Virus record (IMG/VR): IMGVR_UViG_3300021387_000661
Location: 160,001 to 224,000 of that record
Source of the DNA: a virus
Lineage: Duplodnaviria > Caudoviricetes
DNA length: 64,000 bases
Reading direction: 5' to 3' (one strand)
The notes below the pieces were generated by a model. It saw only the letters and a program-made list of their open reading frames with translations, was not told the origin of the DNA and did not search any database. Shown here one piece after another: positions 23,843 through 41,225 of this stretch (positions are counted from its first letter, which is position 1; every line of letters starts with the position of its first letter). Made by a program: the position numbers and the translations under genes.

Positions 23843-24445
23843 TTATTTTTTAATTATTTTTCCTTTAATATTTGAGTATTTTCTGTATTCAAAATCAGCA
23901 AATACTAAAAATGGTTTGTTTGTTAATTCCAAATCTCCTTCAATTTCTGGTGATATTCCAGATATATCCTTAATATGTCTACATCCAACTATACAATAAT
24001 TTCCTCCTACTTTTTGGGGGGATCCATCAAGAGACTCTAATAATAGATTGACATTAGCAGAAAAATTACCACCAACTATTTCCGGTCCACCAATAAAGTT
24101 TCTTATTTTGTTTTCATAAATTACAAAATCACCAGTTACCTCATTTGGTGAATTTTCAAGTGTATCAAGATTAAGGTCACTCAACCATATTGTTCCATCA
24201 ATCTTTCCAAACTTGAAAGGTAATTTTTTATCAACCAAATCAAATGGTTTTACCATAATATTTCTATGAATATCAAGAGAAAAATCTGAATTGATTGTAT
24301 ATTCACCTTCTTTTAAATTATGTCTTTCAATGAACTCTTTAATTGGTTCTAATTGCCAACTATCCTCATCTTTATATTCCTTACCATTACCCCTTCTTCT
24401 GATGTCACCCCAGACAGATTCAGATATTTCGCTTAATCTTTTCAT
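23843..24445 (-). CDS. leader-module protein with leucine-rich-repeat-like cargo
   Basis: MKRLSEISE|SVWGDIRRRGNGKEYKDED leader, then LxxLxxSPxxVxGxF repeats; late motif at 24468-24461. Confidence 0.7.
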   Translation of the reverse strand: MKRLSEISESVWGDIRRRGNGKEYKDEDSWQLEPIKEFIERHNLKEGEYTINSDFSLDIHRNIMVKPFDLVDKKLPFKFGKIDGTIWLSDLNLDTLENSPNEVTGDFVIYENKIRNFIGGPEIVGGNFSANVNLLLESLDGSPQKVGGNYCIVGCRHIKDISGISPEIEGDLELTNKPFLVFADFEYRKYSNIKGKIIKK

Positions 24446-24478
24446 ATACTCTTTACTATATATTTATGAGAATAAAAA

Positions 24479-24507
24479 ATGGATTTCACAGTAAATGTGA
24501 AATCCAT
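24479..24507 (-). terminator. intrinsic terminator
   Basis: 12-bp stem ATGGATTTCACA / TGTGAAATCCAT followed by a T run on the minus strand. Confidence 0.7.
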
Positions 24508-24528
24508 CGAAATATATAGATATGTGTA

Positions 24529-25428
24529 TTATGTTGTTAAAATGTACCAGGCACCAGACATATCTTTAAGTTCTTGGATTATGTTTTCTTTCTCTGTTGA
24601 ACCTTCATTGGCAATTGCCTCAACATTGACAGATATATTACCTGGCATCTGATATGAGAATGCACCAAGGATTCTACTCAACTGGACTTTACAGTCAGCA
24701 ATAACATATCTACGGAATAGGTCATCATTATACAAATCACAATCAGGAACTCTCACAAGTACATCAAGAATGACATCACTCTTTGGAAGTTCACCAAGGA
24801 ATCTCAAATTGTTTGTCAACCTGTTATATTTGAAGGAGATCATATTCTGGAAGATTTGTCTTGATATATCCAGGAATGCCTCTGTACAGATATAGTACAT
24901 GGTATTGTCAGCAGAGACTGCCATAGTCCTGTCATATACAGACTGATAGACCATCCTATGAAGACTTACATCACCGGAGTTCTTACCAAGGAGACCAGTG
25001 TTCCAACCACTTTCGCCGGACCACCCCCCCAGAGAATAAACACCAACTACAGAAATAACACCGTCTGGAAGAACATATGTCCCTCTTGTATGTCCAGTAT
25101 TGGGTTCTTTACCTTCTCCTTTCTTGAATTTTGCTGTTACCTTATTATCTCCTGGACCATCCATGGAATGAATACCCCTCTGGAATGAATGCTTTCTTAT
25201 TTCTGATTCAGGTATGGCTATAAACATTTCTTCAGACGCATCCTCATAACTTTTGTAGAACATTGTCTTGGCATTTTTAGTCAACTGGGCAATGGATTCA
25301 GCAGGGATGGTAAAGGGTATTGCACCATTCACAGACATTTCATTTTGAATACTCTCAACAAAGTCATTCAGGCACTCAACCTCATCTATATCAGAACAAT
25401 TAACTAATGTACTTACTTTTGATGCCAT
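24529..25428 (-). CDS. neck protein (T4 gp13-like)
   Basis: C-terminal YVIADCKVQLSRILGAFSYQMPGNISVN...EGSTEKENIIQEL resembles gp13; late motif at 25458-25451. Confidence 0.65.
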   Translation of the reverse strand: MASKVSTLVNCSDIDEVECLNDFVESIQNEMSVNGAIPFTIPAESIAQLTKNAKTMFYKSYEDASEEMFIAIPESEIRKHSFQRGIHSMDGPGDNKVTAKFKKGEGKEPNTGHTRGTYVLPDGVISVVGVYSLGGWSGESGWNTGLLGKNSGDVSLHRMVYQSVYDRTMAVSADNTMYYICTEAFLDISRQIFQNMISFKYNRLTNNLRFLGELPKSDVILDVLVRVPDCDLYNDDLFRRYVIADCKVQLSRILGAFSYQMPGNISVNVEAIANEGSTEKENIIQELKDMSGAWYILTT

Positions 25429-25430
25429 AG

Positions 25431-26396
25431 TTATAATTTACTTATATAAGTATTTATGATACTTTTACATTCATTAATGTCTGTTGTAAATACTTCCAAA
25501 TAATTTAATTTATTTTCTTTTGCAATAGTTCTTTTATTAACATCCCTGACTGTCCAATTATATATTGCTTCTGTGTAAAATTTTGTATTCTTATTTTCCC
25601 ACAGTTTAATTTTTTCTAAATCATCTGGATTGGATTTATTAAATGGATGCCTTCCATGTGTCCAGGATCCTTGTATTTCTATATATAATTTTAATTCTGG
25701 TATGTAAAAATCACAAGAAAATGGATATGAATTATCTTTATGTTGTCTTTCAACAGATGGGTATAATTCTTTCAACCAATTATAACAATCTGTTTCAATT
25801 TTTGATGTACCAAATGTATGATTTTTTCTTTTTGTTTCAAATTCATGTTGTTTCCTTTGTTCATTTATTTCAATAGAATATTCTTTCCACTTTTTTGTTT
25901 TTGCATAATTATTTACACCATATTTTTCTATACAAGTATCTGCTGCTTTATTTCTATTGTTATAATTTCCATTACCATATTTTAATTCTTTAGTTTGATA
26001 ACTATGTTCTTTATGTCTTTCAGATTGATTAACACATTTTGTACTACAATATTTTTTATATCCTTCCTTAAATGATTCCATAGTACATCTTTTCCCACAA
26101 ATTGGGCATATACCCAATCTTAATTCATAATCATTTTGAAGAAAATGCCATAATTTTTGACAAAATCTCCAAGTCTTTGATTCCTCTGGAAATGAAATAC
26201 CTTTATATTGTTGATATAATTCTGGAAAGAATTTCAAAAATCCACCATTTAGTTTGTTATTAGTATAAGATTCACAAACTAAATTACCACTTTTATCTTT
26301 ATTTAATTTAGTAAGAAAATAGAACACATCAGATTTATTTGTTCTATCAAAAGATTCAGGAAAACCATAGTCTTCCAAAGAATTAAACTTTTTCAT
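25431..26396 (-). CDS. free-standing homing endonuclease (zinc finger, EKYG repeats, PD-(D/E)XK/Vsr-like C-terminal domain)
   Basis: CPICG...YCSTKC, LKYG/EKYGVNN repeats, CDFYIPELKLYIEIQGSWTHG. Confidence 0.75.
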   Translation of the reverse strand: MKKFNSLEDYGFPESFDRTNKSDVFYFLTKLNKDKSGNLVCESYTNNKLNGGFLKFFPELYQQYKGISFPEESKTWRFCQKLWHFLQNDYELRLGICPICGKRCTMESFKEGYKKYCSTKCVNQSERHKEHSYQTKELKYGNGNYNNRNKAADTCIEKYGVNNYAKTKKWKEYSIEINEQRKQHEFETKRKNHTFGTSKIETDCYNWLKELYPSVERQHKDNSYPFSCDFYIPELKLYIEIQGSWTHGRHPFNKSNPDDLEKIKLWENKNTKFYTEAIYNWTVRDVNKRTIAKENKLNYLEVFTTDINECKSIINTYISKL

Positions 26397-26454
26397 AATT
26401 ATCGGTTAATTTTATATAGAAGGAGACTGCCAGATCTCCTATACTATATTTATG

Positions 26455-26553
26455 AAAAATGGGAAATGAAATCAATCATTTCCCAATAGAGTTTGACTTG
26501 AAACTGGCATTTACAAGTCATTGTGGAATAACCGATAAGACCACAGAACTCTT
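26455..26553 (-). ncRNA. candidate small RNA with three-way junction and two loops antisense to the endonuclease leader
   Basis: Late motif at 26565-26558; closing stem 26488-93/26547-52; hairpins 26494-520 and 26522-545; terminator hairpin 26460-485 plus U5. Confidence 0.55.
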
Positions 26554-26560
26554 AATATAT

Positions 26561-27514
26561 TTATGATACTTTTTCCAATATAGGATTATCAACAACAGCA
26601 AGGAATGTGTCTATCAAATCCACAACAGACTTATTGGTAGGTTTTTTCTTTGGTTTGAGATATATCCTGGATCTAAGTCTTGATGTAGTAAGTATATAAT
26701 TATTACTCAACATCCTTTCCAAATTCACATATTTATCAAAAAGAGTTGGTGATGTTGCCATTGAAACAACACTGTTATCTTTTTTAGATATTTCTATTAT
26801 CAATGTCTTTATCCTACCACCAATGGATTCAATTGGTATGAATATCTCAATGATATCACTATCCGTTATTGATAGTCTTCCACCAATTTTTTCATTGATT
26901 TTCTTGCTCTTTGGTTGATAGTGTTCTGAAAGATATACAAAGAATTCTTCATAACCAAAATGGTCAATGTCATCCTCTTTCTTGATGTCAGAACCATTAC
27001 CTCTTTTTCTAATGTCACCCCATACAGATTCATCTATATTCTTTATTAGTATTGGTTTTTCTGCATTTGTAGATATGGTATCTATCACATCAAGAAGCAG
27101 TTTATTTGAAATAGTATTATCTTTTGATTTGATGTAACTTAAACCACTTGGATCTCTATATATTTTAAAATTATCTGTTAATTCTTTATAGAAACCTACA
27201 CATTCTTTCTCATTGGCAAACAAAATGATTTTATTTATATCGCCATCTGTATAATATGCAACAAGTCTATGAACATTATATCTATACATAAACATTGGTA
27301 ATGAAAAATATAGATAATTATTTTCTGTACTACTTTTTAATGGTAATACATGTACATTTGGATCTTGATGATATATTGTATATATATAATCAAACATATC
27401 ATCTCTATCAAGATGTTCAATATCATCCTCTTTTTTGACATCAGTTCCATTACCTCTTTTCCTAATGTCATTCCATACTGATTCATCTATATATGTCTTA
27501 AAATCTGGTATCAT
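26561..27514 (-). CDS. leader-module polyprotein (2 units)
   Basis: MIPDFKTYIDE|SVWNDIRKRGNGTDVKKEDD; internal IDE|SVWGDIRKRGNGSDIKKEDD. Confidence 0.85.
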   Translation of the reverse strand: MIPDFKTYIDESVWNDIRKRGNGTDVKKEDDIEHLDRDDMFDYIYTIYHQDPNVHVLPLKSSTENNYLYFSLPMFMYRYNVHRLVAYYTDGDINKIILFANEKECVGFYKELTDNFKIYRDPSGLSYIKSKDNTISNKLLLDVIDTISTNAEKPILIKNIDESVWGDIRKRGNGSDIKKEDDIDHFGYEEFFVYLSEHYQPKSKKINEKIGGRLSITDSDIIEIFIPIESIGGRIKTLIIEISKKDNSVVSMATSPTLFDKYVNLERMLSNNYILTTSRLRSRIYLKPKKKPTNKSVVDLIDTFLAVVDNPILEKVS

Positions 27515-29057
27515 ATCTTCTCAATTAATTTACATATTCTGCTATCCTTCACCCTTTCCAAAAGGAAATCAATCAGACTGATAAAAAATGTATTTGTCAC
27601 TTCACTTCCATCCTTTGGTTTAATCTTAATGTAATGTGATGATATTATATTACCTTGTTTGTTTATAACATCTTCAAGGGTAAAATGATATTTCAAAAAA
27701 TTATATAAATCTGGTGCCCAGTCTTTCAGAGCAGGACTTATAGATATATATGTTTCAGTATTTAAATGTTTAATACTTAAATATAATGTTTGTGGATTAT
27801 CCTTACCAGAATAATCCATTAAAACAGGAACACTTAATGTCACATCATTTACCCTGACCTGTTTTCTTTCAAAAAAAGCATTACCCTTTGCTGATTGTTT
27901 ATAATGAGTGTCTATATAATCATATAAACCATCAATATCCAACAAATCAATGTCATCCTCTTTCTTGATCTCAGAACCATTACCCCTTCTTCTAATGTCA
28001 TTCCAGATAGATTCTTTGACTATCCTTTCAATTGCTTTTGATGGACCAATTTGAGCATTATCTAAAATGAAATTAATTACTTCAATGAAGAATGAATTTG
28101 TTATTTTACTTCCATCCTTTGGAGATACAATATAATATATATGGTTTCTTCCTTTATCAGATTTCAGTGTAAATTTATCTTCTAATTTGAGTAATAAACC
28201 TTTCTGAAAACTATAAGGTAAAGTATAATTTATACACACCATTTGACCAAGATTAGCATATTCCCAATCCTTACCTGTTAATTTTTTTAAAGTGTTACTA
28301 TATTTTTTGGTATCAAAATACATTGTACAGTTATTATTCCCAGCAATAGGGACAGTAATTCTTCCATATTCTGGTGAGTTTTTTATTTCATATACATTCC
28401 AAGGTGATGGTAAAACTTTATAATAATTAATCAGATAGTCATACATTTCATCTCTATCAAAAGAATCAATGTCATCCTCTTTCTTGATGTCAGAACCATT
28501 ACCCCTTCTTCTAATGTCATTCCATATTGATTCACCTATGTATGTCTTAAAATCTGGTATCATTTCTTTTCAAGTATTTTTAATATTTTGTTGTTATTAT
28601 CTGTGGTGTTGTTCAAGATGAAATCAATAAATGCTTCACAAAATTTAGAAGTTATTCTACCATCCTTTGGTTTTATTTCAAAATCAATCCAATGATCCAT
28701 TCCATCAAATGTGGATATCTCTGGTGAATAAGTATCTTTAATTTTATCAAACAGTTGATTGATATCATCTTTAATGTGTGTCACAAACTTTCTTAATGAT
28801 TGTGTTGTATATCTATCTGGATCAATTGAAGCAAAAGTTATTTTATTTTTATATATTTCTACTGATGAATATGAATTTAACCCGATAACCTTGTAAATTG
28901 GTATATGGATATAATCATTTTTGAACTCAATATCATCCATACCCACAAAACCAACAAAATAATGTACACTTATAAAATTATAGATATCATCAAGTATATC
29001 TTCATTCTTGACATCAGTACCATTGCCTCTTTTCCTGATGTCATTCCATATTGATTC
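26969..29057 (-). repeat. five in-frame ~63-bp copies of the leader module (29057-28995, 28533-28471, 28014-27952, 27484-27422, 27031-26969)
   Basis: Direct repeats of the GAATC..TGG..GACAT.AG.A..AG.GG.AATGG..CTGA..TCAA.AA.GA.GAT type, seen directly. Confidence 0.9.
27511..28563 (-). CDS. leader-module polyprotein (2 units)
   Basis: MIPDFKTYIGE|SIWNDIRRRGNGSDIKKEDD; internal VKE|SIWNDIRRRGNGSEIKKEDD; ATGA-coupled. Confidence 0.85.
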   Translation of the reverse strand: MIPDFKTYIGESIWNDIRRRGNGSDIKKEDDIDSFDRDEMYDYLINYYKVLPSPWNVYEIKNSPEYGRITVPIAGNNNCTMYFDTKKYSNTLKKLTGKDWEYANLGQMVCINYTLPYSFQKGLLLKLEDKFTLKSDKGRNHIYYIVSPKDGSKITNSFFIEVINFILDNAQIGPSKAIERIVKESIWNDIRRRGNGSEIKKEDDIDLLDIDGLYDYIDTHYKQSAKGNAFFERKQVRVNDVTLSVPVLMDYSGKDNPQTLYLSIKHLNTETYISISPALKDWAPDLYNFLKYHFTLEDVINKQGNIISSHYIKIKPKDGSEVTNTFFISLIDFLLERVKDSRICKLIEKI

Positions 29058-29087
29058 TCCTATATATGTCTTAAAATCTGGTATCAT
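28560..29087 (-). CDS. leader-module protein (1 unit)
   Basis: MIPDFKTYIGE|SIWNDIRKRGNGTDVKNED; TAATG-coupled to the spike gene. Confidence 0.85.
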   Translation of the reverse strand: MIPDFKTYIGESIWNDIRKRGNGTDVKNEDILDDIYNFISVHYFVGFVGMDDIEFKNDYIHIPIYKVIGLNSYSSVEIYKNKITFASIDPDRYTTQSLRKFVTHIKDDINQLFDKIKDTYSPEISTFDGMDHWIDFEIKPKDGRITSKFCEAFIDFILNNTTDNNNKILKILEKK

Positions 29088-29779
29088 TATCCTATCTTTA
29101 TTTTCTTTGAGAAATCATTTGGAGTAATTTGCTGAATTGGCTTCGATGACTGACCATCCGATGTGAAATGTGTATGTTCATTGAAAACCTTCATCAACTT
29201 ACTTCCCATAATGAGCTTTTCCTCTGCATCTGATGTTAATTTTATATTATCACAATCTATTTTAACAGCTGCATCAGTATGAATGGTTATATCATTTGTG
29301 GAAGTGTCTATTGAAAAACCGGCATTATTTTTTGTCTTGATTTCCAATAGATTGTATTTAGGCATTGATATAAGATTACCATTACACTCTATTGTAAGAC
29401 CCTTCTCTGGAAGATAATAAATCTTCATATAATCCTTTGAACCATCTTCATTATAATCTTCTGAAAATGCAACAATCTTCACTTTGTCACTGTCTTCTGC
29501 ATTATCATGAAGAAGGTCTTTCACATTCCCCCTTATTTCTACCGGACCATAATATGTGATGTTGTATGTGTCCTTTACATCAACATATACCCTGTCTCCA
29601 ACCTTGGGTACTGAATAACTACCAGATGTTGGATTCGGGCCAGGAAGTGCCCAAGGAAGATCATCGTCAAGTATAACATATTGGCCTCTGATTTTCTCTG
29701 TGTGTAATCCAAAAACCCTTATCTGACATCTATTTTTGAACTTTGGATCATAATTATTTACAACAATTCCTGTTTTCAT
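29087..29779 (-). CDS. baseplate central spike (T4 gp5 / gpV-like OB-fold, HxH tip)
   Basis: GIVVNNYDP..NRCQIRVFGLH, LPWA, VPKVGDRVYV; C-terminal FNEHTH metal-binding motif. Confidence 0.8.
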   Translation of the reverse strand: MKTGIVVNNYDPKFKNRCQIRVFGLHTEKIRGQYVILDDDLPWALPGPNPTSGSYSVPKVGDRVYVDVKDTYNITYYGPVEIRGNVKDLLHDNAEDSDKVKIVAFSEDYNEDGSKDYMKIYYLPEKGLTIECNGNLISMPKYNLLEIKTKNNAGFSIDTSTNDITIHTDAAVKIDCDNIKLTSDAEEKLIMGSKLMKVFNEHTHFTSDGQSSKPIQQITPNDFSKKIKIG

Positions 29780-29780
29780 A

Positions 29781-29823
29781 CATAAATATTTTGTAAAGTG
29801 TCACTAATACATAGATATTTATG
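29781..29823. promoter_or_regulatory. pair of late promoters serving divergent genes (CATAAATA + at 29781; - at 29823-29816)
   Basis: One motif per strand, serving terminase and the spike/leader-module operon. Confidence 0.6.
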
Positions 29824-29852
29824 GACATTTTTTATACAACTATATATTTTTT

Positions 29853-31739
29853 ATGGCTCAAGCACAAACACAACAGAATACTGTCAAGAAAAATATAATA
29901 TGGAGTACACAACTAGTGGACAACTGGATGTGTGATCATGCTGACGGTACATTCCATAAGGAAAATCCCTGGCTTGATGGACAAGTTGGAGTAAAGCGAG
30001 CAGGACTCTCATTTGAATATACACATGAAGAAATAGAAGAACTAACAAAATCTGCTAATGATGTGATTTATTTTGCCAATCATTATGGGTATTGTATGCA
30101 TGGTTCACAGGGTTATAAACCTATCACATTGAGGGATTATCAGGAAGAGATGTTACATAGTTATGCAGAAAATAGATTTACTTGTTGTATGTCATCAAGA
30201 CAAGTTGGTAAAACAGTTGTGGCTGCTCTTTTCCTTCTCCATGAAGCAATTTTCAATGTTGACAGAAACATAGGTATCGCTGCGAATAAACTCGCAACGG
30301 CAGTGGAAATTATGGATAAGATTAAAGAGATTATGGATTATCTTCCATTCTTTATGAAACCAGGAATCAAGGTCTTCAACCAGACTATGATAGTATTTGA
30401 GAATGGTTGTAGAATCATTGCCCAGGCAACTACGAAAAGGTCTTTCATTGGTTTTACTATCCATACTCTTTATTGTGATGAGTTTGCACATGTTGAACCA
30501 CACATCCTTGATGAGTTCTATGAAAACATCATGCCTACTGTTTCTTCAATGGATGACTCAAAAATTATCATCACTTCAACACCTAATGGATATAACAAGT
30601 TCTTTGACATCTACCAGGGTGGTGTTGATGGTACTAATTCATATCATTCATTGAGGGTCGATTGGTGGCAGGTACCTGGAAGAGATGATGAATGGAAAGA
30701 AAAAACCATTGCAGATTGTGGTGGAGAAGATGAGTTTATGAGACAGTTTGGTAATTCATTCCTCTCAACAGGTAACACACTGCTATCCCCAGACAGTTTG
30801 GCAAAACTTCAGAAAAACAGAATAAGGTTTATTAGAAAAGACATACCAGAAGTAGAAAGAAACTGGGAAGATGAGTTCAGAGGCCTTCTTTTCCATCCTG
30901 ATTTTGATGTGGATGAGTTCAGGAACAAAGACAAGAAATGGGTGTTGAGTATAGACCTGTCTGAAGGTGGTGGAGGAGACAATTCTATTCTTAATTTCTT
31001 CAATTTGAGGATGAAGAATAAAGAACTATTGAAGAAAGACCTCAATGATTCTGATAAGGAAATAAAGAAATCGGATTACTTCCAACTTGTACAGGTTGGT
31101 AGGTTTAAGAGTAATATCATATCTCTTGAGAAACTTGCAAAACTTACCTATATATTGGTAATGAATGTGATAGGTCCTGACAATATCAGACTTGTTGTAG
31201 AATACAATGCCTTTGGTAGTGAGTTTTTGAGACTTCTTCAGACTGTCTTTGGCGATAAGAATGACTTTGATCCATCTTGTGTATTGAAGTTCTACCATTC
31301 AAGTGATGCAAAAACCAGGAAGTATGGACTTAAGGTAAGACCTGATAATAAACCTATTATGTGTATTACCTTAAAGGGTATGATTGCAAATGACAATATC
31401 ATAGTCACTGATGATGACACTGTGGGTGAATTTGAAGTGTTCAGTAAGGTTGGTGGCACCTGGAAGGCAAGTAGAGACCATGATGACCTTGCAATGTCAA
31501 CTGTTGATGTGACTGCAATATTTGATCACCCATATTTTGATGTTATGATGGAAGAGATTATGTGTCTTGAAGAAAATTCTGAAATATACAAACTCTATGA
31601 ATCAAGTATGGATGAGAAGTTTGGTAATCTCTATGACAATTATCAAAACCTTAATCAAATACAAAGAGAGGATCCAGATTTCAGATATAGGGGTAATGAT
31701 TTTGGCGGTTACTTTGGAAATAAAGGAATATATCAATAA
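29853..31739 (+). CDS. terminase large subunit (T4 gp17-like)
   Basis: LRDYQ, Walker A SRQVGKT, Walker B LYCDEFAH, ITSTPNG, nuclease IDLSEG and HDDLAMS. Confidence 0.95.
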   Translation: MAQAQTQQNTVKKNIIWSTQLVDNWMCDHADGTFHKENPWLDGQVGVKRAGLSFEYTHEEIEELTKSANDVIYFANHYGYCMHGSQGYKPITLRDYQEEMLHSYAENRFTCCMSSRQVGKTVVAALFLLHEAIFNVDRNIGIAANKLATAVEIMDKIKEIMDYLPFFMKPGIKVFNQTMIVFENGCRIIAQATTKRSFIGFTIHTLYCDEFAHVEPHILDEFYENIMPTVSSMDDSKIIITSTPNGYNKFFDIYQGGVDGTNSYHSLRVDWWQVPGRDDEWKEKTIADCGGEDEFMRQFGNSFLSTGNTLLSPDSLAKLQKNRIRFIRKDIPEVERNWEDEFRGLLFHPDFDVDEFRNKDKKWVLSIDLSEGGGGDNSILNFFNLRMKNKELLKKDLNDSDKEIKKSDYFQLVQVGRFKSNIISLEKLAKLTYILVMNVIGPDNIRLVVEYNAFGSEFLRLLQTVFGDKNDFDPSCVLKFYHSSDAKTRKYGLKVRPDNKPIMCITLKGMIANDNIIVTDDDTVGEFEVFSKVGGTWKASRDHDDLAMSTVDVTAIFDHPYFDVMMEEIMCLEENSEIYKLYESSMDEKFGNLYDNYQNLNQIQREDPDFRYRGNDFGGYFGNKGIYQ

Positions 31740-31740
31740 T

Positions 31741-31905
31741 ATGTCAAGAGTTAAAGTAACAGAATATAAAGGTTTTTTAATTATATATGGTCCTTTATTT
31801 AAAAGAATTGAAACTATAGATGGACCATATAGTTTTCGTACAATAAAAGAAGCAAAGAAATATATAGATGAAAATTTATTGAATAATGAAAAAAAGGAGG
31901 ATTAA
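31741..31905 (+). CDS. small hypothetical protein (54 aa)
   Basis: ATG immediately after terminase stop; ends at terminator 31891-31916. Confidence 0.5.
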   Translation: MSRVKVTEYKGFLIIYGPLFKRIETIDGPYSFRTIKEAKKYIDENLLNNEKKED

Positions 31906-31914
31906 TCCTCCTTT

Positions 31915-32322: not shown

Positions 32323-32334
32323 TTTAACTTATTT

Positions 32335-34125
32335 TTATTTTAAGATTCCTCCCATTGTCCTTACCACAAGATTATTAACTGATGATCTTTTGTGTATGGA
32401 TGGTGTGGTGGAATATTTACCATCTATTTCATATGTTTTATTTGCTTCCTGATTTTCCATATTCTTGTCTGGCTGGAAATTCTGCATGGAATCAATGGAT
32501 CTATATGCATTCAATATATCACCATTTGTAAATGAATAAAATCTACCTTTTGAACCATTGAACATATTTTCAATCATTGAGTTGTCTCTTGGCATACAGT
32601 GCTCCATTTCAACAATGAATTTTATTTCAGTAGGAAAATCATCATATCCCAAAGCATCACCAAACTGTACTGTGGTTTTTGTCACGGCCATATTTCCCAT
32701 CATAGCAATGGGATCAAGTGGATTTCCAATGGTCACATGCCAGAAACCAGATGGATTTCCAGAAAGAAGTGCAGGAACAGCCACACCTTCACCAGCTACA
32801 CCAATATTACCACCAAGAAGATTACCAACAAGACCCTGAATAAATCCAGATCCTATTGTCTTCAATCCATTTACAAGTTTACCCATAAAAGTATCAGGTG
32901 TAGAACCGTCACTTGACAGGGATATCTTTCTAAATCCTTCCCTGACATCTCCGGCAAGACTCCTTAAATATGCACCATATTTACCCTGTCTTAATAAATC
33001 CGGATCACCATATTGAGGTGCAATGTTTCTGTTACCATAGAATATTGTCTCACCACCCCAGAATGAACCATAATTACCTGTAAGAATTAAGAAATTTGAC
33101 AAGATGTCCATCATAGCAATCCTTGGATTCACACATTTCAATGATTTCAATGAATATTCAAATGTTAGTGAGAAACTATTTGAGAATGTAAGACCTCTAC
33201 TTCTCAATTTTACTTTATTTACAACATTAATGTCACCATAAAGTTCTTCACCATATCTAGCATTAAAAGTATTGCCCTCATACCTATGTTGAGCAGCCAT
33301 TGCCTCTGCCATATTTTTCCCCTTTCCTGCCACCATAGCAGACATAATCCACAAACTTTTTGACTGTGCAGTTAAACTGTTACTACCACCCACCTGGGCT
33401 TCACCAGTTAATAGGTTTGTAGAGTCTCTTCTTCTCATCTGTGCTGCAAGACCACCATCCGGGTTTTGTAAGGATTCTGTTTTTCCTTCCCTTTCCTCCC
33501 AGTTTGCACCATAATCAAACTTGAGAATATCTGAAAGTTTATTACCTGTCTGTTCTCCCATATATGTAACCGCTGTTGCAAGGGCAAAATATTCATCTGG
33601 ATAATCATTCATCCTGTTTACCATTTCAGCAGGCATATCCAATCCAAACATATGATCAGAACAAGGTCGCGTATACCTTCTTAATGTAATCATATAGTTG
33701 TTTGGAATTTGATTGTAATATTTCAGATAGATAAAATCCTGCATTTTGTACCTTGCAAGACCATGCGGATCAAAATCATCAGAACTATAATAAGATATGA
33801 TATTTTTATATGTGGGATTTTTCTTATCTCTTAAATATGCTTTAAGATATTCATCCTTCATAATACATCTTTCATAGTCACTATATTCTGTGAAATTTAT
33901 ATCCTGTGAGAACATAGGATATCCATTATATATAGTTCTGTAGTTAATTGCCACATTGTCATTCATAATGGAATGAGGGAGGGCAATTACACCATTTGAT
34001 TCATCTGAAGCAACAAAGAAATCCAACCCATCATCCTTATCTGCACTTACATTTTTAACCTCGACAGGAAATGGGGTCATTCTTGCATCTACATTACAAG
34101 CATCAAAATAAAAAGTATTTGGCAT
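32335..34125 (-). CDS. putative baseplate/tail structural protein
   Basis: Late motif at 34154-34147; co-transcribed with the gp53-like gene; no specific family recognised. Confidence 0.5.
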   Translation of the reverse strand: MPNTFYFDACNVDARMTPFPVEVKNVSADKDDGLDFFVASDESNGVIALPHSIMNDNVAINYRTIYNGYPMFSQDINFTEYSDYERCIMKDEYLKAYLRDKKNPTYKNIISYYSSDDFDPHGLARYKMQDFIYLKYYNQIPNNYMITLRRYTRPCSDHMFGLDMPAEMVNRMNDYPDEYFALATAVTYMGEQTGNKLSDILKFDYGANWEEREGKTESLQNPDGGLAAQMRRRDSTNLLTGEAQVGGSNSLTAQSKSLWIMSAMVAGKGKNMAEAMAAQHRYEGNTFNARYGEELYGDINVVNKVKLRSRGLTFSNSFSLTFEYSLKSLKCVNPRIAMMDILSNFLILTGNYGSFWGGETIFYGNRNIAPQYGDPDLLRQGKYGAYLRSLAGDVREGFRKISLSSDGSTPDTFMGKLVNGLKTIGSGFIQGLVGNLLGGNIGVAGEGVAVPALLSGNPSGFWHVTIGNPLDPIAMMGNMAVTKTTVQFGDALGYDDFPTEIKFIVEMEHCMPRDNSMIENMFNGSKGRFYSFTNGDILNAYRSIDSMQNFQPDKNMENQEANKTYEIDGKYSTTPSIHKRSSVNNLVVRTMGGILK

Positions 34126-34201
34126 ATATACATATATGATATATGATATTTATGAATATCCATAAATATTCTATATAAGGTTGTTAAGATATTTTTTACT
34201 T

Positions 34202-35551
34202 ATGTCAAATTCAACAAGATATTTTCAATTGACTCCAGATATACTTGTGGAGTATAATTATAGTAGTTTAAATACAGGAACAATTAGTATTGGACATGAT
34301 AAAGGTAAGATTATTGCAAGAACACTGACTTGGGATGATTCTGGTTTTGTTTTACCTGTGAATAAATCCGAATCAAAATTTATTGCTGCTGGATTCCCCA
34401 TCAGTAAATCTGGATTCACTCCAGAATCTATAAGTGAAGGTATATGTAATGTATTCGCTGATACATTTAAACTTCAATTTACAAGTAGAAATTATTTTGG
34501 AAATAATGGTTATGATGGGTTTATAATTACTGTAAATATATATGACAAAATAAAAAATAAAATTTGTTTGTTTTCTCATTATGTAAGAAAAACAGATGAT
34601 ATCAGTATTAATGAAAATCCTCTACTCATCAACCAAAAGTTATATACTGCAAATTTAAGTTTCAAGATTCCTAATGTATATGCAATATTATATCCGGAAA
34701 AGGTTGTAAATTCTAATGATGAAAATCTATTAAGGTCTAAATTGTTTCCTACATATGGTATATTGGATAACACACCTATAATTATGAGTATATATGGTGT
34801 AAAATCCACTGTGGTTGAGCATACACATGAATATTATACTGTAGAAAAAATTAATTCCATTTATATCCCTGTTGAAGATCATACAAAAAAATTGAACTTC
34901 ACCATTTATGAAGATAAAAAATATGACTACTTTGTAATTAAAACTGATAAAGATAGTGGATCTTTATCTTCTTATTTGAATACTATATCAGATGGTCATC
35001 CTGAATTGTATATTGTATTCCATGAATTAACTGTTACAGAAAACGTTGTGGATAGTAATAATGATCCCCATAGTGAAATCACACACCATGAACAGTTTCT
35101 CATAAATGGTGGAAAACAAACTGAAGATGGAATTATTGTAAATGGCAGTGAACTGGATAAAGAAATATATTTCAGACCTGTTATACGGTATGCAGACAAG
35201 GATGTATCTGTTAATATTGATGTAAAAACTTATATTATCAACACTCTTGACAATACAACAATAGTAAAACATATATCCCTTGATAGTAGAGATCCAGAAA
35301 GTAGATTCGACCCTAACAAATATGGTAAAAAAATAAATCAAATTGTACTTGATGGTTCTGAAAACAATAAAAAATTGACACAGGTGAAAGTATATAACAA
35401 GAGACCAGACATTGATCTTGATGGTGTTAAGATTACCAATGCCAGTTCTAATGTCAAGATTGAAAACCACCAGCATTCAGTTATTGGGTTTATTGAATGT
35501 GCAAATGTGGGGGTTTCAATAGAACAAATACCAACAGAGTTGTTACAGTAA
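34202..35551 (+). CDS. putative virion structural protein
   Basis: Late motif at 34161-34168; beta-rich; ATG start preferred over upstream TTG. Confidence 0.5.
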   Translation: MSNSTRYFQLTPDILVEYNYSSLNTGTISIGHDKGKIIARTLTWDDSGFVLPVNKSESKFIAAGFPISKSGFTPESISEGICNVFADTFKLQFTSRNYFGNNGYDGFIITVNIYDKIKNKICLFSHYVRKTDDISINENPLLINQKLYTANLSFKIPNVYAILYPEKVVNSNDENLLRSKLFPTYGILDNTPIIMSIYGVKSTVVEHTHEYYTVEKINSIYIPVEDHTKKLNFTIYEDKKYDYFVIKTDKDSGSLSSYLNTISDGHPELYIVFHELTVTENVVDSNNDPHSEITHHEQFLINGGKQTEDGIIVNGSELDKEIYFRPVIRYADKDVSVNIDVKTYIINTLDNTTIVKHISLDSRDPESRFDPNKYGKKINQIVLDGSENNKKLTQVKVYNKRPDIDLDGVKITNASSNVKIENHQHSVIGFIECANVGVSIEQIPTELLQ

Positions 35552-35578
35552 AAGAGAACTAAAAAGTTCTCTTTTTTT

Positions 35579-35610
35579 TTTGGAATTGTCAGAAATTATT
35601 ATTATCTTTG
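35579..35610 (+). promoter_or_regulatory. Bacteroidota sigmaA-type (early) promoter TTTG-N20-TATCTTTG
   Basis: Matches the -33 TTTG / -7 TAnnTTTG consensus. Confidence 0.75.
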
Positions 35611-35630
35611 TGGTGAAAACAAGATGATAT

Positions 35631-35831
35631 ATGAAAAAGATTAAATTCAACTTTCAGGGAAAACAAAGAGTTCACACTTTTTTCTTTGGGATTAAACCTG
35701 GTGTTAATGGATTTAGTATCCGTGATGACAGGGGTATTCTTCATGACTGTTTACTTACAAATAATGTAGTGAATATCTATGGACTGGATTCAGATGTGTT
35801 GGAAGAAAAGAGTAATGTTGAAATACTTTGA
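35631..35831 (+). CDS. hypothetical protein
   Basis: First ORF after early promoter. Confidence 0.55.
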   Translation: MKKIKFNFQGKQRVHTFFFGIKPGVNGFSIRDDRGILHDCLLTNNVVNIYGLDSDVLEEKSNVEIL

Positions 35832-36448
35832 ACAATATGCTTACAATAAAAGAAATTAAGGATTCTGGTGGTCTTTATACCATTCCTTCTTATGTACATT
35901 TCAACAAGGATATTTGTTTTGACTTTCGCTTGTTTGATGCACTTGTCAACCCAAATTCTGATGGGTGTGCAGACTATAAATATGACTTTAATGTCTATCT
36001 GCCAAAATATGGTGTATATCTTCAGAGACCTTATGTTTGGGAGCATTGTCAGCAGCAGGAGTTTATTCTATCTATACTCCAGGAGAAACCTATTGATTCC
36101 ATCATCCTGGTTCAGCATGATAATGACACAAACAGGATGAATAGGACAAACATAGTAAATTATGTCATTGATGGTAAACAGAGGTTGATGACCATCCAGA
36201 AGTTTGCCAATAATGAGTTCCCTATATATATCAATGGGAAGGAGTACTATTTCAGGGATTTTGATAAAGACCTTCAGAGGTTCTTCAAATCCAGGGTCAA
36301 CTATTTCATTGGTACTGTGTATTACTCTTACCCTGATGCACCGGTGACTGAAGATATGCTCATCACCCTCTTCAATTTCTACAACTTTGCCGGGACACCA
36401 CAGACAGAGGAACATAAAAATAAACTTCAAAGTTTGTTGGAAAAATAA
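35828..36448 (+). CDS. stand-alone DUF262 (GmrSD N-terminal / ParB-like) domain protein
   Basis: LQRPYVW...FILSIL..KPIDSIIL and VIDGKQRLMTI motifs. Confidence 0.75.
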   Translation: MNNMLTIKEIKDSGGLYTIPSYVHFNKDICFDFRLFDALVNPNSDGCADYKYDFNVYLPKYGVYLQRPYVWEHCQQQEFILSILQEKPIDSIILVQHDNDTNRMNRTNIVNYVIDGKQRLMTIQKFANNEFPIYINGKEYYFRDFDKDLQRFFKSRVNYFIGTVYYSYPDAPVTEDMLITLFNFYNFAGTPQTEEHKNKLQSLLEK

Positions 36449-36537
36449 GTCTTATTTCCATTATTACAAAAAAATCGCCCTCATTTGAGTGCGATTTTTT
36501 CTTATTTCTGCACTAAACTTGGTGCGATTATTAAAAT

Positions 36538-37002
36538 TTAGTCTTTATCTTCTTTTTTCTTCTTTTTCTTATCGTCATCGTCATCATCTTTCTCCTCTTT
36601 CTTCTCGTCCTTTTCTTTTACCTCTTCCTCTTCTTCGTGCTTCTCCTCTTTTTTCTCTTTCTTTTCACCATCTTTCTTTTCTCCCTTATCACCTTCTTCT
36701 TTTTCAGATGGTTTTGCATCAGTATTTTCTGTTGGTTTTTCATCAACATCCTTACCACTGACAACATCCTTGGCAATGACAGTTTCATCTTTTTCTACAG
36801 GAACAATAACATATGATTTATTAAGTTCATCATTATGTTTCTTCAAATTCTTTGTTTCTGGACATTCTTCTTTCTCACCTTCTGCTGTTTTTTTATTCCA
36901 GTAGGTTTCATAATCATCAATTGTACCTTGATAATAACGGATTTTTTTCAAAATGAAATCTTCTTGACCTTCTACAGGTATTTTTTTATCTTCTTTACTC
37001 AT
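36538..37002 (-). CDS. highly charged low-complexity (E/K/D) protein
   Basis: C-terminal half almost entirely E/K/D; late motif at 37032-37025. Confidence 0.6.
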   Translation of the reverse strand: MSKEDKKIPVEGQEDFILKKIRYYQGTIDDYETYWNKKTAEGEKEECPETKNLKKHNDELNKSYVIVPVEKDETVIAKDVVSGKDVDEKPTENTDAKPSEKEEGDKGEKKDGEKKEKKEEKHEEEEEVKEKDEKKEEKDDDDDDKKKKKKEDKD

Positions 37003-37077
37003 AATATAAATATCTATTATAAGTTATTTATGATAGTTTATTTTTGTTATATTTATTAACAGGTAAATAAGTATTTT

Positions 37078-37878
37078 ATGAGTAAGAATTATTATGATGT
37101 TCTGGGAATAAAAAAGACAGCAACCCAGGATGAAATAAAGAAAGCATATAGGGAGTTATGTAAAAAATACCATCCTGACAAGAATGGTGGTGATGATACA
37201 AAATTCAAAGAAATTAATGAGGCATATGAAACCCTTGGAGATGAAACAAAGAGAAAGCAATATGACTCACCTGGTGGATTTGGTGAATTTGGTGGATTTA
37301 ATGGGTTTAGTGGATTCAATGGGTTTAATGGATTTCATGGATTCAGACAAATGGCATCTGATATACAAATGAAGATAACTATATCCATTGAAGATGCATA
37401 TTATGGTTGTAAATATCCTGTTAATGTAAATGGAAAACTCTATTCAATAGATATACCAAAAGGCATTACAAATGGAAAGGTATTGAAAATATCAGGACTT
37501 GGTACAAAGGGGTATAATATATATGGTGAACAAACCACTGGAGATTTAATTGTACATATTTCTGTACAAAATACAGATAAGATGTATTTAACAAGTATGG
37601 TTAATGGTACAACTGTTCTTGAAGTTCTCCAGGCGGTAGACTGGATAGATGCAATACTTGGTGCAGAGATTACTGTGAAGGTGTTTGACAGGGATGTGAA
37701 GGTAAGAGTTCCTAAATTCACACAGAATGGTGGATATACTATGGTTGGTGGTCAGGGTTTCCACAAGTATAATTCAGATGAACTGGGGAGTTTGAGAGTT
37801 AACTTTATTATTAAAATGCCAAAAAATCTCACAGACAGTCAACTTGAACAACTTAAAAAAATAAAAGAGAGCATGTAA
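37078..37878 (+). CDS. dnaJ: DnaJ/CbpA-type co-chaperone
   Basis: J domain with HPD, G/F-rich repeats, C-terminal domain without zinc finger. Confidence 0.9.
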
Positions 37879-37915
37879 GCTCTCTTTTGTTGTTATGTGC
37901 TATGTATGTGTTATA

Positions 37916-38470
37916 TCAGAAAACAAAATCAATTATGTTTCCTGCAACACTATTATCACAAAGGAAATCAATGTTAACTTTTGCTACATCTTTGTTTCCA
38001 GAAATCTCTCTTCCAGAAAGTCCTCTTTCCTTATAATAACTCTTGAATGCTTTTACAACAACTGTGATTGTATCAAGGTCTGTTGCTTTTGTAAGGTTTG
38101 AATAATTGGTGCGACCAATGTAAAGTTTACCAGGTTTTTCAACAATGATATTAGGAAGAACCTTCTCAACAAGGAATGTCTTCAATGTTTCTGGATCAAC
38201 ATCCTTATCACCCTCAAGGATATAACCACCAAATGATTGACCATTTATAGAAGGGTTCATAAGATATCCAAGTTTGGTTATACCTTTTACATCACTATCA
38301 ATTACACCCTGGCAATCAAACCAGAATGGTATTCTTTCTTCAATAAGTTTGCAGAGAATTACTTCAAAGGTATTTTTGAAATCATTATATGTGAGTTTCC
38401 TACCTTCTCTCTCATCTCTATACTTTGATAAAATTCCTTCATTAAGGAACTGTTTCCAAGATGGCATCAT
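37916..38470 (-). CDS. putative internal head protein with capsid-targeting-like leader
   Basis: MMPSWKQFLNE|G; late motif at 38508-38501. Confidence 0.5.
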   Translation of the reverse strand: MMPSWKQFLNEGILSKYRDEREGRKLTYNDFKNTFEVILCKLIEERIPFWFDCQGVIDSDVKGITKLGYLMNPSINGQSFGGYILEGDKDVDPETLKTFLVEKVLPNIIVEKPGKLYIGRTNYSNLTKATDLDTITVVVKAFKSYYKERGLSGREISGNKDVAKVNIDFLCDNSVAGNIIDFVF

Positions 38471-38500
38471 AATTTTTTACTATTAAAATTTACTATATTA

Positions 38501-38522
38501 TATTTATGAAACAACATAAATA
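38501..38522. promoter_or_regulatory. back-to-back late promoters (CATAAATA - at 38508-38501; + at 38515-38522)
   Basis: One motif per strand between divergent leader-bearing genes. Confidence 0.6.
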
Positions 38523-38526
38523 ACTT

Positions 38527-39855
38527 ATGAGAAAATTGAGTAATATAACTGAATCGGTCTGGAATGACATCAGGAAAAGAGGAAATGGAACTGAAGTAAG
38601 GAAGGAAGATGAAAGGCATAAGATTTTAGAAAGACTTCTTGCAACATATATAAAGTTGTTTGCAGAGAGTTGTTACTATCATGATGAATATACATCAGGT
38701 AGTTATCCAGATTTTAGGGCATATATAAAAGACTTCAGGGATAATCCAAGAATTGAAGAAGTGTGTCCTGATGATTCATATTTTGATGACTTACTTAATT
38801 ATGTTAATAAGGAAACCTGGAATGATCAGATTATTGATACTGTAATGGAAATGACAAACAGACTTGATAAAGGTGAACATCTGATAACTGATGATGTCAT
38901 TGAAGAATTGAAGAAACATAATATAACTGAATCAGTCTGGAATGACATCAGGAAAAGAGGAAATGGTACTGAAGTGAAGAAAGAGGATCATATAGATCTT
39001 CTTGATCCTGATGATTTTGTTTCCTATATAAGAAAAAACTACAGGATTGATAATACACCATATGATATTGAAAACCATATGAATTCTTCTAATATTTTCA
39101 TACCTATCTGTACCTGTGGTGTAAAAATGATAAAATTGATGGCAATATATTTTGAGTATGATGAAGGTGTGGTATATACACACAATTCAATCAAAAAATA
39201 TATACCTAAATTATGGACAAAGTTAGACCAGGAATTTGACTTATGGGATAATGATCCTGATTATCAAGACTATACAATTATAAATCCAAAGGACACAAGT
39301 AAAAAAATAACCAATTCATTTGTACTTGAAGTTTTGAATTTCATCATAGATAACATAGATGATGTAGATAATGATACTATTAAATCTTGCATTTCCAGAA
39401 AAATAAATGAATCAGTCTGGAATGACATCAGGAAAAGAGGAAATGGTACTGATGTCAAGAAAGAGGATGATGTTGACCTTATGGATGCTGATGCATTTCT
39501 TCAGTATTTGAAAGACCATTATGATTCTACTAACATTGAATTTAGAGAGGATATGGGACAATATTATCATTGCTTTTTAATTAATATATTGAAATTGTTC
39601 TCAAATGTAAGTTATTTTCTTTCTTATGACTTTAAAAAGAAGAATATTTCATTTAATCTTGATTTGAAAAACCATTATCCAGATTTATTTATAAAGATGA
39701 ATGATGCTTTCCGCATTATGGGTATAAACAGGACAACTTGTTATATATATGACAAAGATAGTTTAGATGTAACAAATTCATTATATATTAAGGTGTTGAA
39801 TTTTATCATTGATAATGTTGAAAATAAAGAAGATTTACTAATAAATAGAAAATGA
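38527..39855 (+). CDS. leader-module polyprotein (3 units)
   Basis: ITE|SVWNDIRKRGNGTEVRKEDE, ITE|SVWNDIRKRGNGTEVKKEDH, INE|SVWNDIRKRGNGTDVKKEDD. Confidence 0.85.
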   Translation: MRKLSNITESVWNDIRKRGNGTEVRKEDERHKILERLLATYIKLFAESCYYHDEYTSGSYPDFRAYIKDFRDNPRIEEVCPDDSYFDDLLNYVNKETWNDQIIDTVMEMTNRLDKGEHLITDDVIEELKKHNITESVWNDIRKRGNGTEVKKEDHIDLLDPDDFVSYIRKNYRIDNTPYDIENHMNSSNIFIPICTCGVKMIKLMAIYFEYDEGVVYTHNSIKKYIPKLWTKLDQEFDLWDNDPDYQDYTIINPKDTSKKITNSFVLEVLNFIIDNIDDVDNDTIKSCISRKINESVWNDIRKRGNGTDVKKEDDVDLMDADAFLQYLKDHYDSTNIEFREDMGQYYHCFLINILKLFSNVSYFLSYDFKKKNISFNLDLKNHYPDLFIKMNDAFRIMGINRTTCYIYDKDSLDVTNSLYIKVLNFIIDNVENKEDLLINRK

Positions 39856-40817
39856 TACCAGATTTTAAGACATACATTAAAGAATCCATCTGGGGTGACA
39901 TCAGGAAAAGAGGAAATGGTACTGATGTCAAGAAAGAAGATGATGTTAATCATATGAATTTTGATACATTTGCTGATTACATTAAAGATAACTATTCAGA
40001 AAAAGGAGATTGGTTTTCTATTGGTGAAAGTTCAGATGAAAAATCAAGACATATAGAAATAGATATTATCTCTGGAATCGATTTAAGTTTTAATGTAGTT
40101 AATGGAAAGATATATAATATATTAATACAAAATAATGCCAACAAATATATAGATGTACCTGGACTTAAAAAGATATTTAATGTAAATATACTCGGTAGTG
40201 GTACATTTGGTGTTGTTGAAAAGGATTGGACAAGATCAAATAATACATTTGTAAAATTGATTGAATTTTTCCTGGAGAAAAAGACAAATGAATCTATCTG
40301 GAATGACATCAGAAGGCGAGGTAATGGAACTGATGTCAAGAAAGAGGATGATGTTGACTTACTTGAACCGCAAGCATTTGTTGAATATCTCAGGGAGACA
40401 TATAAAAATGTGAATACTGACTTCCATATTTTTAAGGATTTGAATGATAAAATAACTGTTCCTATCTTTGAAACAGATTTAGGTACAAAAGTAACCTGGT
40501 TCTTGGAGTATGATTGTGATAAAAATGAAGTATTTGTCTGGAAACAATTTTTAATTAAAGATGATGAACTTTTTAATAAACTCAAAAATAATTATAAAAC
40601 GGAGATTATAAAAAAAGATTTTACAGAATATGTTTTAATAGAACCAAAAATAGGTAAGTCATCAAACAAGTTCTTTATAGAAATCATTGATTATATTCTT
40701 GAAAATGCATATATCTTCTTCAAAAGAATACTTGTTAAGAATAATAAATTATCTGAATCTATATGGAATGACATACGTAGAAGAGGTAATGGTACTGATG
40801 TTAAAGAAGAGGATAAT
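38551..40817 (+). repeat. six in-frame ~63-bp copies of the leader module (starts 38551, 38929, 39409, 39882, 40290, 40755)
   Basis: For example GAATCAGTCTGGAATGACATCAGGAAAAGAGGAAATGGTACTGA is identical at 38929 and 39409. Confidence 0.9.
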
Positions 40818-41225
40818 ATAAACAATCTTGATTGTGAAGGATTGACAGATTATTTAAAAAAACATTATAAACCATTAAATGCATATGCTGTTATAACTTC
40901 TGTTGCAGATATAATAAGTGTACCAATAATAAGAAATCATACAAACAGTTCTATAATGTTTGCATGTAAAACAAATAAGGTTAAAATGACAAATGATATA
41001 GTGGATCGGGTACATGGTTTATTAAGAGTAATGGAAAATAACTTTTCAATAGAAACATTTGAAGGTGAAGATGGAAATGGAGAATATAAAGTTTATACAA
41101 TTTTACCAAAAGATGGAAGTGAAGTGACAAACAAGTTTTTTATTGAAGTGATTGATTTCCTTTTATATCATATACCTGGTGATTTGTATAATAAATCTAT
41201 TGTAAAAATTGATGATAAATCATAA
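39852..41225 (+). CDS. leader-module polyprotein (3 units)
   Basis: MIPDFKTYIKE|SIWGDIRKRGNG, TNE|SIWNDIRRRGNG, LSE|SIWNDIRRRGNG; ATGA-coupled. Confidence 0.85.
   Translation: MIPDFKTYIKESIWGDIRKRGNGTDVKKEDDVNHMNFDTFADYIKDNYSEKGDWFSIGESSDEKSRHIEIDIISGIDLSFNVVNGKIYNILIQNNANKYIDVPGLKKIFNVNILGSGTFGVVEKDWTRSNNTFVKLIEFFLEKKTNESIWNDIRRRGNGTDVKKEDDVDLLEPQAFVEYLRETYKNVNTDFHIFKDLNDKITVPIFETDLGTKVTWFLEYDCDKNEVFVWKQFLIKDDELFNKLKNNYKTEIIKKDFTEYVLIEPKIGKSSNKFFIEIIDYILENAYIFFKRILVKNNKLSESIWNDIRRRGNGTDVKEEDNINNLDCEGLTDYLKKHYKPLNAYAVITSVADIISVPIIRNHTNSSIMFACKTNKVKMTNDIVDRVHGLLRVMENNFSIETFEGEDGNGEYKVYTILPKDGSEVTNKFFIEVIDFLLYHIPGDLYNKSIVKIDDKS

Follow-up and report, generated by a model that had tools for sequence, protein, structure and literature searches.

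In a 64,000-nucleotide stretch of viral DNA (Duplodnaviria; Caudoviricetes), referred to here as the window, six genes carry between them 12 copies of a conserved 22-residue module, the tag, each of which is followed by a larger domain, the cargo. The window corresponds to bases 160001-224000 of a single metagenome-derived virus contig (IMG/VR record IMGVR_UViG_3300021387_000661) of 344,746 bp, with a GC content of 34.7% and an estimated completeness of 94%. On balance we lean towards the interpretation that the tag genes encode late-expressed precursors of head cargo: a leader like the capsid-targeting sequence (CTS) of T4 would bring about import, a protease of the S77 family would cut at each [ILVM]-x-E|S junction and the released units would keep the tag at their N-termini. 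An earlier interpretation of the same DNA, made from its letters alone (the sequence-only reading), had also proposed head cargo. The protease, the junction statistics, the CTS-like leaders and the flexible tag lend it partial support at the level of sequence and prediction, whereas its description of the cargos as diversified effectors did not stand.

The tag module and the genes that carry it

A six-frame scan with a regular expression finds exactly 12 copies of ES[IV]W[NG]DIR[KR]RGNG..K.ED in the window, all within six open reading frames (ORFs), and ORF listing and translation place the six tag genes at the coordinates and on the strands given below. The gene and copy numbers claimed in the sequence-only reading are therefore borne out, and its list of the 12 tripeptides that precede the tag Ser was correct throughout. 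Each unit of tag and cargo comprises 126-192 residues, tag included. When the whole 344,746-bp contig is scanned, 26 copies are found, spread over 15 genes, and the window holds 12 of these copies; the remaining loci lie at 10 kb, 63-67 kb, 72-75 kb, 275 kb, 296 kb and 302 kb of the genome.

The tag copies differ freely at synonymous positions, with five Ser codons, both Glu codons and three Ile codons in use, which indicates that selection acts on the peptide. Judged from these sequences, the tag is a homologous repeated module and chance is excluded as its source. The same synonymous differences rule out a repeat that matters at the DNA level alone, such as a recombination signal or an RNA element; the breakpoints in a comparison of two phages (see below) are nevertheless located at tags. 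Across the wider family the consensus becomes ES[IVL]W.D[IM]..R..G...[RK]KEDD, and the mean column identity of the tag is 58%, compared with 15% for units taken as a whole, with tag and cargo together. In three proteins of this genome the chain starts with M-S-[IV]-W, the initiator Met standing in place of the Glu at position -1. Since the initiator Met is normally removed ahead of Ser, these proteins would mature to an S-[IV]-W N-terminus, as would units cleaved after Glu.

Four of the tag genes lie on the minus strand. The first (23843-24445) encodes a class-B leader, MKRLSEISE, one tag (copy 1, ESVWGDIRRRGNGKEYKDED, 24356-24421, junction ISE|S) and a 170-residue cargo unrelated to the alpha+beta family described below; it has its own late-type promoter motif, and its product has a 54% identical homologue at a related phage locus (L009). 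The second (26561-27514) has the class-A leader MIPDFKTYIDE and two tag plus alpha+beta units, with copy 2 at 27419-27484 and the internal copy 3 at 26966-27031, both with the junction IDE|S. The third (27511-28563) again has a class-A leader and two such units, with copy 4 at 28468-28533 (IGE|S) and the internal copy 5 at 27949-28014 (VKE|S); this is the protein that was modelled with AlphaFold2, and the cargo of its first unit is the apparently exchanged cassette discussed below. The fourth (28560-29087) has a class-A leader and a single unit (copy 6, 28992-29057, IGE|S), and its start overlaps the stop of a baseplate-hub gene.

The other two tag genes are on the plus strand. That at 38527-39855 has the class-B leader MRKLSNITE and three units, the first with a short helical cargo and the other two with alpha+beta cargos; its tags are copy 7 (38551-38616, ITE|S) and the internal copies 8 (38929-38994, ITE|S) and 9 (39409-39474, INE|S). 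The last gene (39852-41225) overlaps it through ATGA and encodes a class-A leader and three alpha+beta units, with copy 10 at 39882-39947 (IKE|S) and the internal copies 11 (40290-40355, TNE|S) and 12 (40755-40820, LSE|S).

The junction ahead of the tag

The residues immediately before the tag show a consistent pattern in about 600 tags from 249 proteins of many phages. The residue at -1 is Glu in 597 of 600; that at -3 is Ile, Val, Leu or Met in 535, Thr in 46 and Ala or Ser in only five, and position -2 is variable. The [ILV]-x-E that had been noticed ahead of the window tags is thus near-universal in the form [ILVM]-x-E.

A second module is present at the C-terminal end of 21 long family members, as C[DE]GVPGG..VGGMG.AYFPGPNGEPGSGD or C[DE]GVPGG.TP..VGGMG.AYFPGPNGEPGSGDLP. 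It too is preceded by Glu (20 of 21), with Ile, Leu or Met at -3 in 19 of 21. The occurrence of [ILVM]-x-E before a module unrelated to the tag argues that the tripeptide behaves as an element in its own right and is not merely the first turn of the tag, as do the likeness of this module to the capsid protein, the low model confidence at the junction and the three M-S-[IV]-W starts. The second module resembles residues 65-95, the N-terminal arm, of the capsid protein of the same phage (pairwise BLASTP E = 6e-6), and GGMG.AYFPG occurs at only two places in the genome, namely in this module and in the capsid protein. The module may anchor the proteins that carry it to the capsid or the scaffold. 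We note that a 918-residue protein with five tags (genome 72013-74769, plus strand; L005:9014-11770) ends in ..LNE|CDGVPGGLTPADVGGMGSAYFPGPNGEPGSGDLP.. and that twenty other long members end likewise.

Structure prediction places the junction and the tag outside the folded domain. In an AlphaFold2 model built from 62 aligned two-unit sequences, the predicted local distance difference test (pLDDT) scores are 43-56 for residues 1-30 and 181-205, compared with 80-96 for the domains. When single units were modelled from 149 aligned sequences, the scores were 54-59 for the linker and tag, below 50 for the V-K-E junction (that of copy 5) and above 90 for the domain. A short predicted helix begins at the tag Trp, past the junction, and all structural matches of the cargo begin past the tag. 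The junction and tag are accordingly predicted to be flexible. The sequence-only reading had named a module integral to the downstream fold as the outcome that would speak against it; the models put the tag outside the confident domain, with scores of 43-59.

Leaders and late expression

The six window genes all encode leaders of 9-13 residues ending in [ILVM]-x-E, as do about 220 of the 249 family members. The sequence-only reading had described four genes with MIPDFKTYIxE and two with M[KR][KR]LS[NE]IxE, and this division holds well beyond the window: class A, MIPDFKT[YF][IL]xE, is kept in 80 proteins and class B, M[KR]KLSx[IL]xE, in 114, across different phages. In T4, the N-terminal propeptides comprise 10-19 residues and end in L/I-x-E (PMC9026906), and the internal proteins enter the prohead by means of a ten-residue N-terminal CTS, MKTYQEFIAE, which is then removed (PMC9026906, PMC8442874). 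The rarer tag-family and late-protein leaders M..KSFKEFIGE, MSKFYEHITE and MIKKFEEFINE have K-x-[FY]-x-E-F-I-x-E in common with the T4 CTS, although leaders of this length do not allow a statistical assessment; MIPDFKTYIxE and MKKLSxIxE, which are the main classes, have less in common with it than do these variants.

CTS-like leaders also occur on late proteins that lack a tag. One such gene (17964-18314, minus strand) begins MIKKFEEFINE|S, close to the T4 sequence MKTYQEFIAE|A; a second (37916-38470, minus strand), which adjoins the tag genes, begins MMPSWKQFLNE|G, and a third (genome 256389-256793, plus strand) begins MKKLSSIFE|A. No known family was matched by these leader-only proteins and a PHROG scan gave no head-protein annotation for them; the product of 37916-38470 has no match in Pfam or PHROG. 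On the strength of their leaders, we regard these small late proteins as further candidate head cargo. An N-terminal [ILVM]xE[SAG] is present in nine of 57 untagged genes with a late promoter and in 26 of 394 other genes (Fisher p 0.029), which is modest support.

The assignment of these genes to late expression depends on the motif CATAAATA. In the genome as a whole, 62 of its 85 copies lie 8-80 nucleotides before a start on the same strand, compared with 14 of 51 copies of TATAAATA. Judged by this placement, CATAAATA is a real upstream signal with late-promoter-like behaviour. The genes behind it include those for the portal, the protease, the hub and the terminase, a 3533-residue ORF and the tag-gene operons. 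Within the window, copies at 24461-24468 (minus), 29816-29823 (minus) and 38515-38522 (plus) lie 12-44 nucleotides upstream of the genes at 23843-24445 and 38527-39855 and of the hub gene that heads the operon of 28560-29087, 27511-28563 and 26561-27514. Together with the overlap of the gene at 39852 with that at 38527, these three sites substantiate the earlier claim that a late motif lies ahead of the tag genes.

Head protease, capsid and scaffold

A prohead protease of the gp21 type, which the sequence-only reading had implied, is encoded in the genome. The Peptidase_S77 domain (PF03420) matches at genome 112331-112672 with 37.3 bits, over the cut-off, and opens a 653-residue ORF beside the portal and capsid genes; T4 gp21 itself cuts after L/I-x-E (PMC9026906). 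The ORF (genome 112238-114199, plus strand; L008:2239-4200) fuses the protease to a scaffold-like tail of roughly 400 residues, in which we find eight 14-residue repeats (HQDY[LV]AE.MN.MI), each with [LV]-A-E. Repeats of this kind would be expected if the scaffold is broken down into small peptides. Metagenome homologues of the ORF number in the thousands, lie on contigs of 360-412 kb and show 84-88% identity. The gp23-like capsid protein contains, at residue 52, the sequence ..EKQSLNE|SALGY.., a predicted maturation site with the same motif, at a position that we take to be comparable to that of the propeptide cleavage site in T4 gp23.

The head module (portal, protease and capsid protein) lies elsewhere in the genome, and the tag genes of the window are surrounded by other parts of a T4-type core, namely a gp46/SbcC-like protein, a gp13-like neck protein, a gp5-like hub N-terminal domain and the large terminase.

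Cargo domains

Ten of the 12 window cargos align over their full length as one family (DDIDLLD..F.DY...HY ... PKDG..VTN.FFIEVIDFILDN); the exceptions are the cargo of 23843-24445 and that of the first unit of 38527-39855. The variable domains are therefore better read as one fast-diverging paralogous family with an alpha+beta fold, and the same is seen in the wider set, in which 553 of 608 cargos form a single BLAST cluster, 27 are lectin-like and the remainder fall into small groups. The term diversified effectors consequently describes the cargos poorly.

Other types of domain do occur behind the tag. A protein at genome 63650-64687 matches Lcl_C (PF07603) with 37.4 bits (gathering cut-off 34.9) in two stretches, each behind a tag, and a cargo of the BspA-type leucine-rich repeat (LRR) is found in relatives. 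The tag thus appears to be portable, though mostly attached to one domain family.

The six window proteins gave nothing above threshold when compared with Pfam and PHROG. The structure prediction of the cargos that had been proposed with the sequence-only reading gives a confident alpha+beta domain (pLDDT 80-96), but its matches lead to no fold family. Searches with Foldseek (against the PDB and BFVD), a VIA wide search and the Atlas returned weak, generic alpha+beta matches, and a feature search of the ESM Atlas returned no usable match. The top structural match of the cargo model is Atg10 (Z 6.0, root-mean-square deviation 3.9, 114 aligned residues). YbjN matches weakly (Foldseek probability 0.80, TM 0.43, E about 0.1). 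In the VIA search Spa15 (Z 4.6, root-mean-square deviation 4.5, 100 aligned residues) stands amid many unrelated folds at Z 4-5, and type III secretion chaperones, the MotA C-terminal domain and frataxin all score about Z 4.5. YbjN and the type III secretion chaperones share a general alpha-beta-alpha arrangement with the model, and the matches are weak. Because these scores are at the background level of the method, we give the cargo domain neither a fold nor a function.

Spread of the family and exchange of cargos

A profile of the tag (32 residues, E <= 0.001), run against 1.84 billion representative proteins, recovers 810 clusters at 50% identity from public metagenomes, with up to seven tags per protein; a profile search of this kind had been suggested with the sequence-only reading. 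Tag proteins are typically 30-40% identical. For the two-unit protein we found 130 relatives; these all come from metagenome assemblies, with contigs reaching 401 kb, and all are unnamed and without Pfam domains. When a longer family member was compared with the phage collection described below, only its BspA-type LRR cargo gave a match. The sequence-only reading had known of no comparable architecture, and a literature search retrieved no paper quoting the tag peptide and no source naming the tag proteins.

The related phage locus L009, on a 325-kb scaffold, is syntenic with the window, with 75-90% identity between the flanking proteins (terminase 86%, gp13 90%, hub 75%). It has seven units in four genes where the phage studied here has five units in three genes. 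A DNA comparison of 27511-28563 with L009:10001-11575 gives 70-77% identity over the leader and first tag, 92-98% over the first cargo (residues 41-180) and about 60% from the second tag onward; the tags flanking this cargo are 65-77% identical. A cargo so well conserved between diverged flanks looks like the recent lateral exchange of a single domain cassette, with the breakpoints at the tags.

Interpretation

The mechanism that we favour would operate as follows. The precursors, strings of one to three units (up to seven in relatives), would be brought into the prohead scaffold core by the leader of 9-13 residues acting as an analogue of the T4 CTS. The gp21-type S77 prohead protease would then cut after Glu at every [I/L/V/M]-x-E|S, taking off the leader and separating the units. 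The released proteins, of about 130-190 residues, would begin S-[IV]-W-x-D-I-R-x-R-G-x-G...K-K-E-D, and the flexible 22-residue tag at the new N-terminus would bind a common partner, while the domain behind it would diversify fast as cassettes are exchanged at the tags. The repeat architecture with its junction statistics, the protease gene, the late-type promoter motif, the predicted flexibility of junction and tag and the mosaic exchange between two phages are what the analysis shows, and from these we infer that the precursors would be targeted to the head, cleaved and retained there; ejection into the host and a role against host defences or in host takeover are speculative. In a bolder form, a widespread clade of huge phages would import such strings into the prohead and cut them apart, use the 22-residue tag with its free Ser as a retention, ejection or docking signal and deliver a diversified repertoire to the host; this we put forward tentatively, as a possibility that is rather less than probable.

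Several observations weigh against head cargo. The hydrophobic residue at -3 and the Glu at -1 could simply belong to a conserved linear motif. To our knowledge T4 gp21 does not need conserved residues after the cut, and cleavage alone therefore leaves the 22 conserved residues unexplained. The units are mostly acidic (pI about 5), unlike T4 IPII and IPIII, which are basic. The three M-S-[IV]-W proteins have no CTS-like leader, which means that the tag itself targets them or that they are not packaged. Two tag loci adjoin baseplate-hub and tail-fibre-like genes and not head genes. No match to the tag locus was found among 50,697 phage records by megablast and tblastn, and no cultured phage in that collection has the tag. 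Finally, domains like Lcl_C and the BspA-type LRR are typical of surface adhesins, and cargos of these two types would suit an external, adhesive role equally well.

The last of these points leads to the strongest of the competing explanations, in which the proteins remain uncleaved and multi-domain and the tag, with its [ILVM]-x-E, is a docking motif that ties each domain to the virion surface, where capsid, tail or fibres would be decorated with adhesin-like domains, or to a host or phage factor. Besides the cargos suited to adhesion and the two loci beside hub and fibre-like genes, it draws on the conservation of the tag far beyond what a protease site needs (58% compared with 15% column identity) and on the low pLDDT of the tag, as is typical of peptides that stay unfolded until they bind a partner. 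It does not account well for the junction ahead of the unrelated second module or for the short leaders like the T4 CTS, which would be needless on an external decoration protein. The replacement of Glu -1 by the initiator Met in three proteins fits a need for a free N-terminus, and the resemblance of the second module to the N-terminal arm of the capsid protein links the family to the head. We consider docking without cleavage unlikely, if worth keeping in view.

A location in the tail is a good deal less probable still. Here the tag would be a loading signal for cargo carried on or in the spike and tube complex and delivered on contraction, much as contractile injection systems encode effectors beside VgrG/PAAR. 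In the window, the gene for a gp5-like baseplate hub N-terminal domain (29087-29779, minus strand; PHROG 430 and 37871) heads an operon in which the three class-A tag genes on that strand are translationally coupled behind it; the order of hub and tag gene is kept in the related phage (L009), and fibre-like genes follow the tag locus at genome 72-79 kb. The remaining tag loci, however, do not adjoin hub genes, and in T4-like genomes the neighbours of a gene say little about where its product is located in the virion. Moreover, the leader and the junction point to the head protease, which is active inside proheads, and the second module resembles a capsid protein and not a tail protein.

That the tag proteins are cytoplasmic late proteins outside the virion, with the tag as a signal for timed unfolding or turnover by the phage's own ClpP, ClpA/B-like AAA+ protein and DnaJ, is highly improbable: all three are encoded in the window, but nothing ties the tag to Clp recognition, and the tandem units, the [ILVM]-x-E junctions, the CTS-like leaders and the capsid-like module would be left unexplained.

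Comparison with known systems

Functionally, the closest system to the head-cargo arrangement proposed here is that of the T4 CTS and internal proteins, although there is no homology. IPI, IPII, IPIII and Alt share with the tag family a short leader ending in [IL]-x-E, an S77 protease in the genome, late expression and hypervariable loci, and several tag-family leaders resemble MKTYQEFIAE. In sequence the cargos do not resemble the T4 proteins, with no match in PHROG or Pfam at the thresholds used, and they are not classed as homologues; the tag family differs further in its tandem arrangement of one to seven units, in its internal junctions, in the conserved 22-residue tag that would be retained and in being mostly acidic.

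The inner-body and ejection proteins of phiKZ, 201phi2-1 and SPN3US are cut by a gp21-like protease after the Glu of a three-residue motif. These proteins occur in giant phages, and some of them form paralogous families. A repeated tag and units strung like beads are absent from them, and the phage studied here has a head module of the T4 type. Many phiKZ-type head proteins are processed, with propeptide regions that contain several sites, and the motif is S/A-x-E (PMC9026906), which is not that of the tag family (Ala or Ser at -3 in five of 600 tags). Polyvalent proteins are multi-domain proteins predicted to be packaged, possibly processed by peptidases and delivered with the DNA (Iyer et al. 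2017, PMC5512222). These combine mixed enzymatic and anti-defence domains, often with a zincin-like peptidase of their own. In the tag family no such Pfam domains were found; its strings consist of small, non-enzymatic domains of one family behind a repeated tag, and the peptidase proposed for them, the prohead protease, is a separate protein. Tandem units with a conserved tag that appears to be retained and with cassette exchange at the tags are not described in the literature that we searched.

If the proposed mechanism is correct, the principle of the T4 CTS and gp21 would be extended to a polyprotein format in which huge phages pack and reshuffle dozens of small proteins, and the succession of leader, [ILVM]-x-E|S and tag would serve as a rule by which head cargo could be predicted from the sequences of uncultured huge phages. 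It would also be a candidate natural system by which large capsids could be filled with foreign proteins. The exchange of cassettes at the tags is a clear case of mosaicism at the level of domains, in a family that is large (the 810 clusters given above).

Other genes in the window

A gene like those for HNH or homing endonucleases (25431-26396, minus strand) separates the tag-gene operon from the gp13-like gene; the syntenic locus in the related phage (L009) lacks this gene, which is therefore probably a mobile insertion. The 3533-residue ORF mentioned above (380-10981, minus strand) has a late-type promoter motif ahead of it and no Pfam match. The phage encodes a ClpP (45244-45903, plus strand), a two-ring ClpA/B-like AAA+ protein (19406-21370, plus strand) and a DnaJ-type chaperone (37078-37878, plus strand). 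A C5 cytosine DNA methyltransferase (12527-14371, plus strand) is split by an intein with a LAGLIDADG domain. At 35828-36448 (plus strand) a 206-residue ORF with a TTG start matches the GmrSD_N domain (PF03235, 51.6 bits); judged by this match, the phage carries a protein related to the N-terminal domain of a type IV restriction enzyme.

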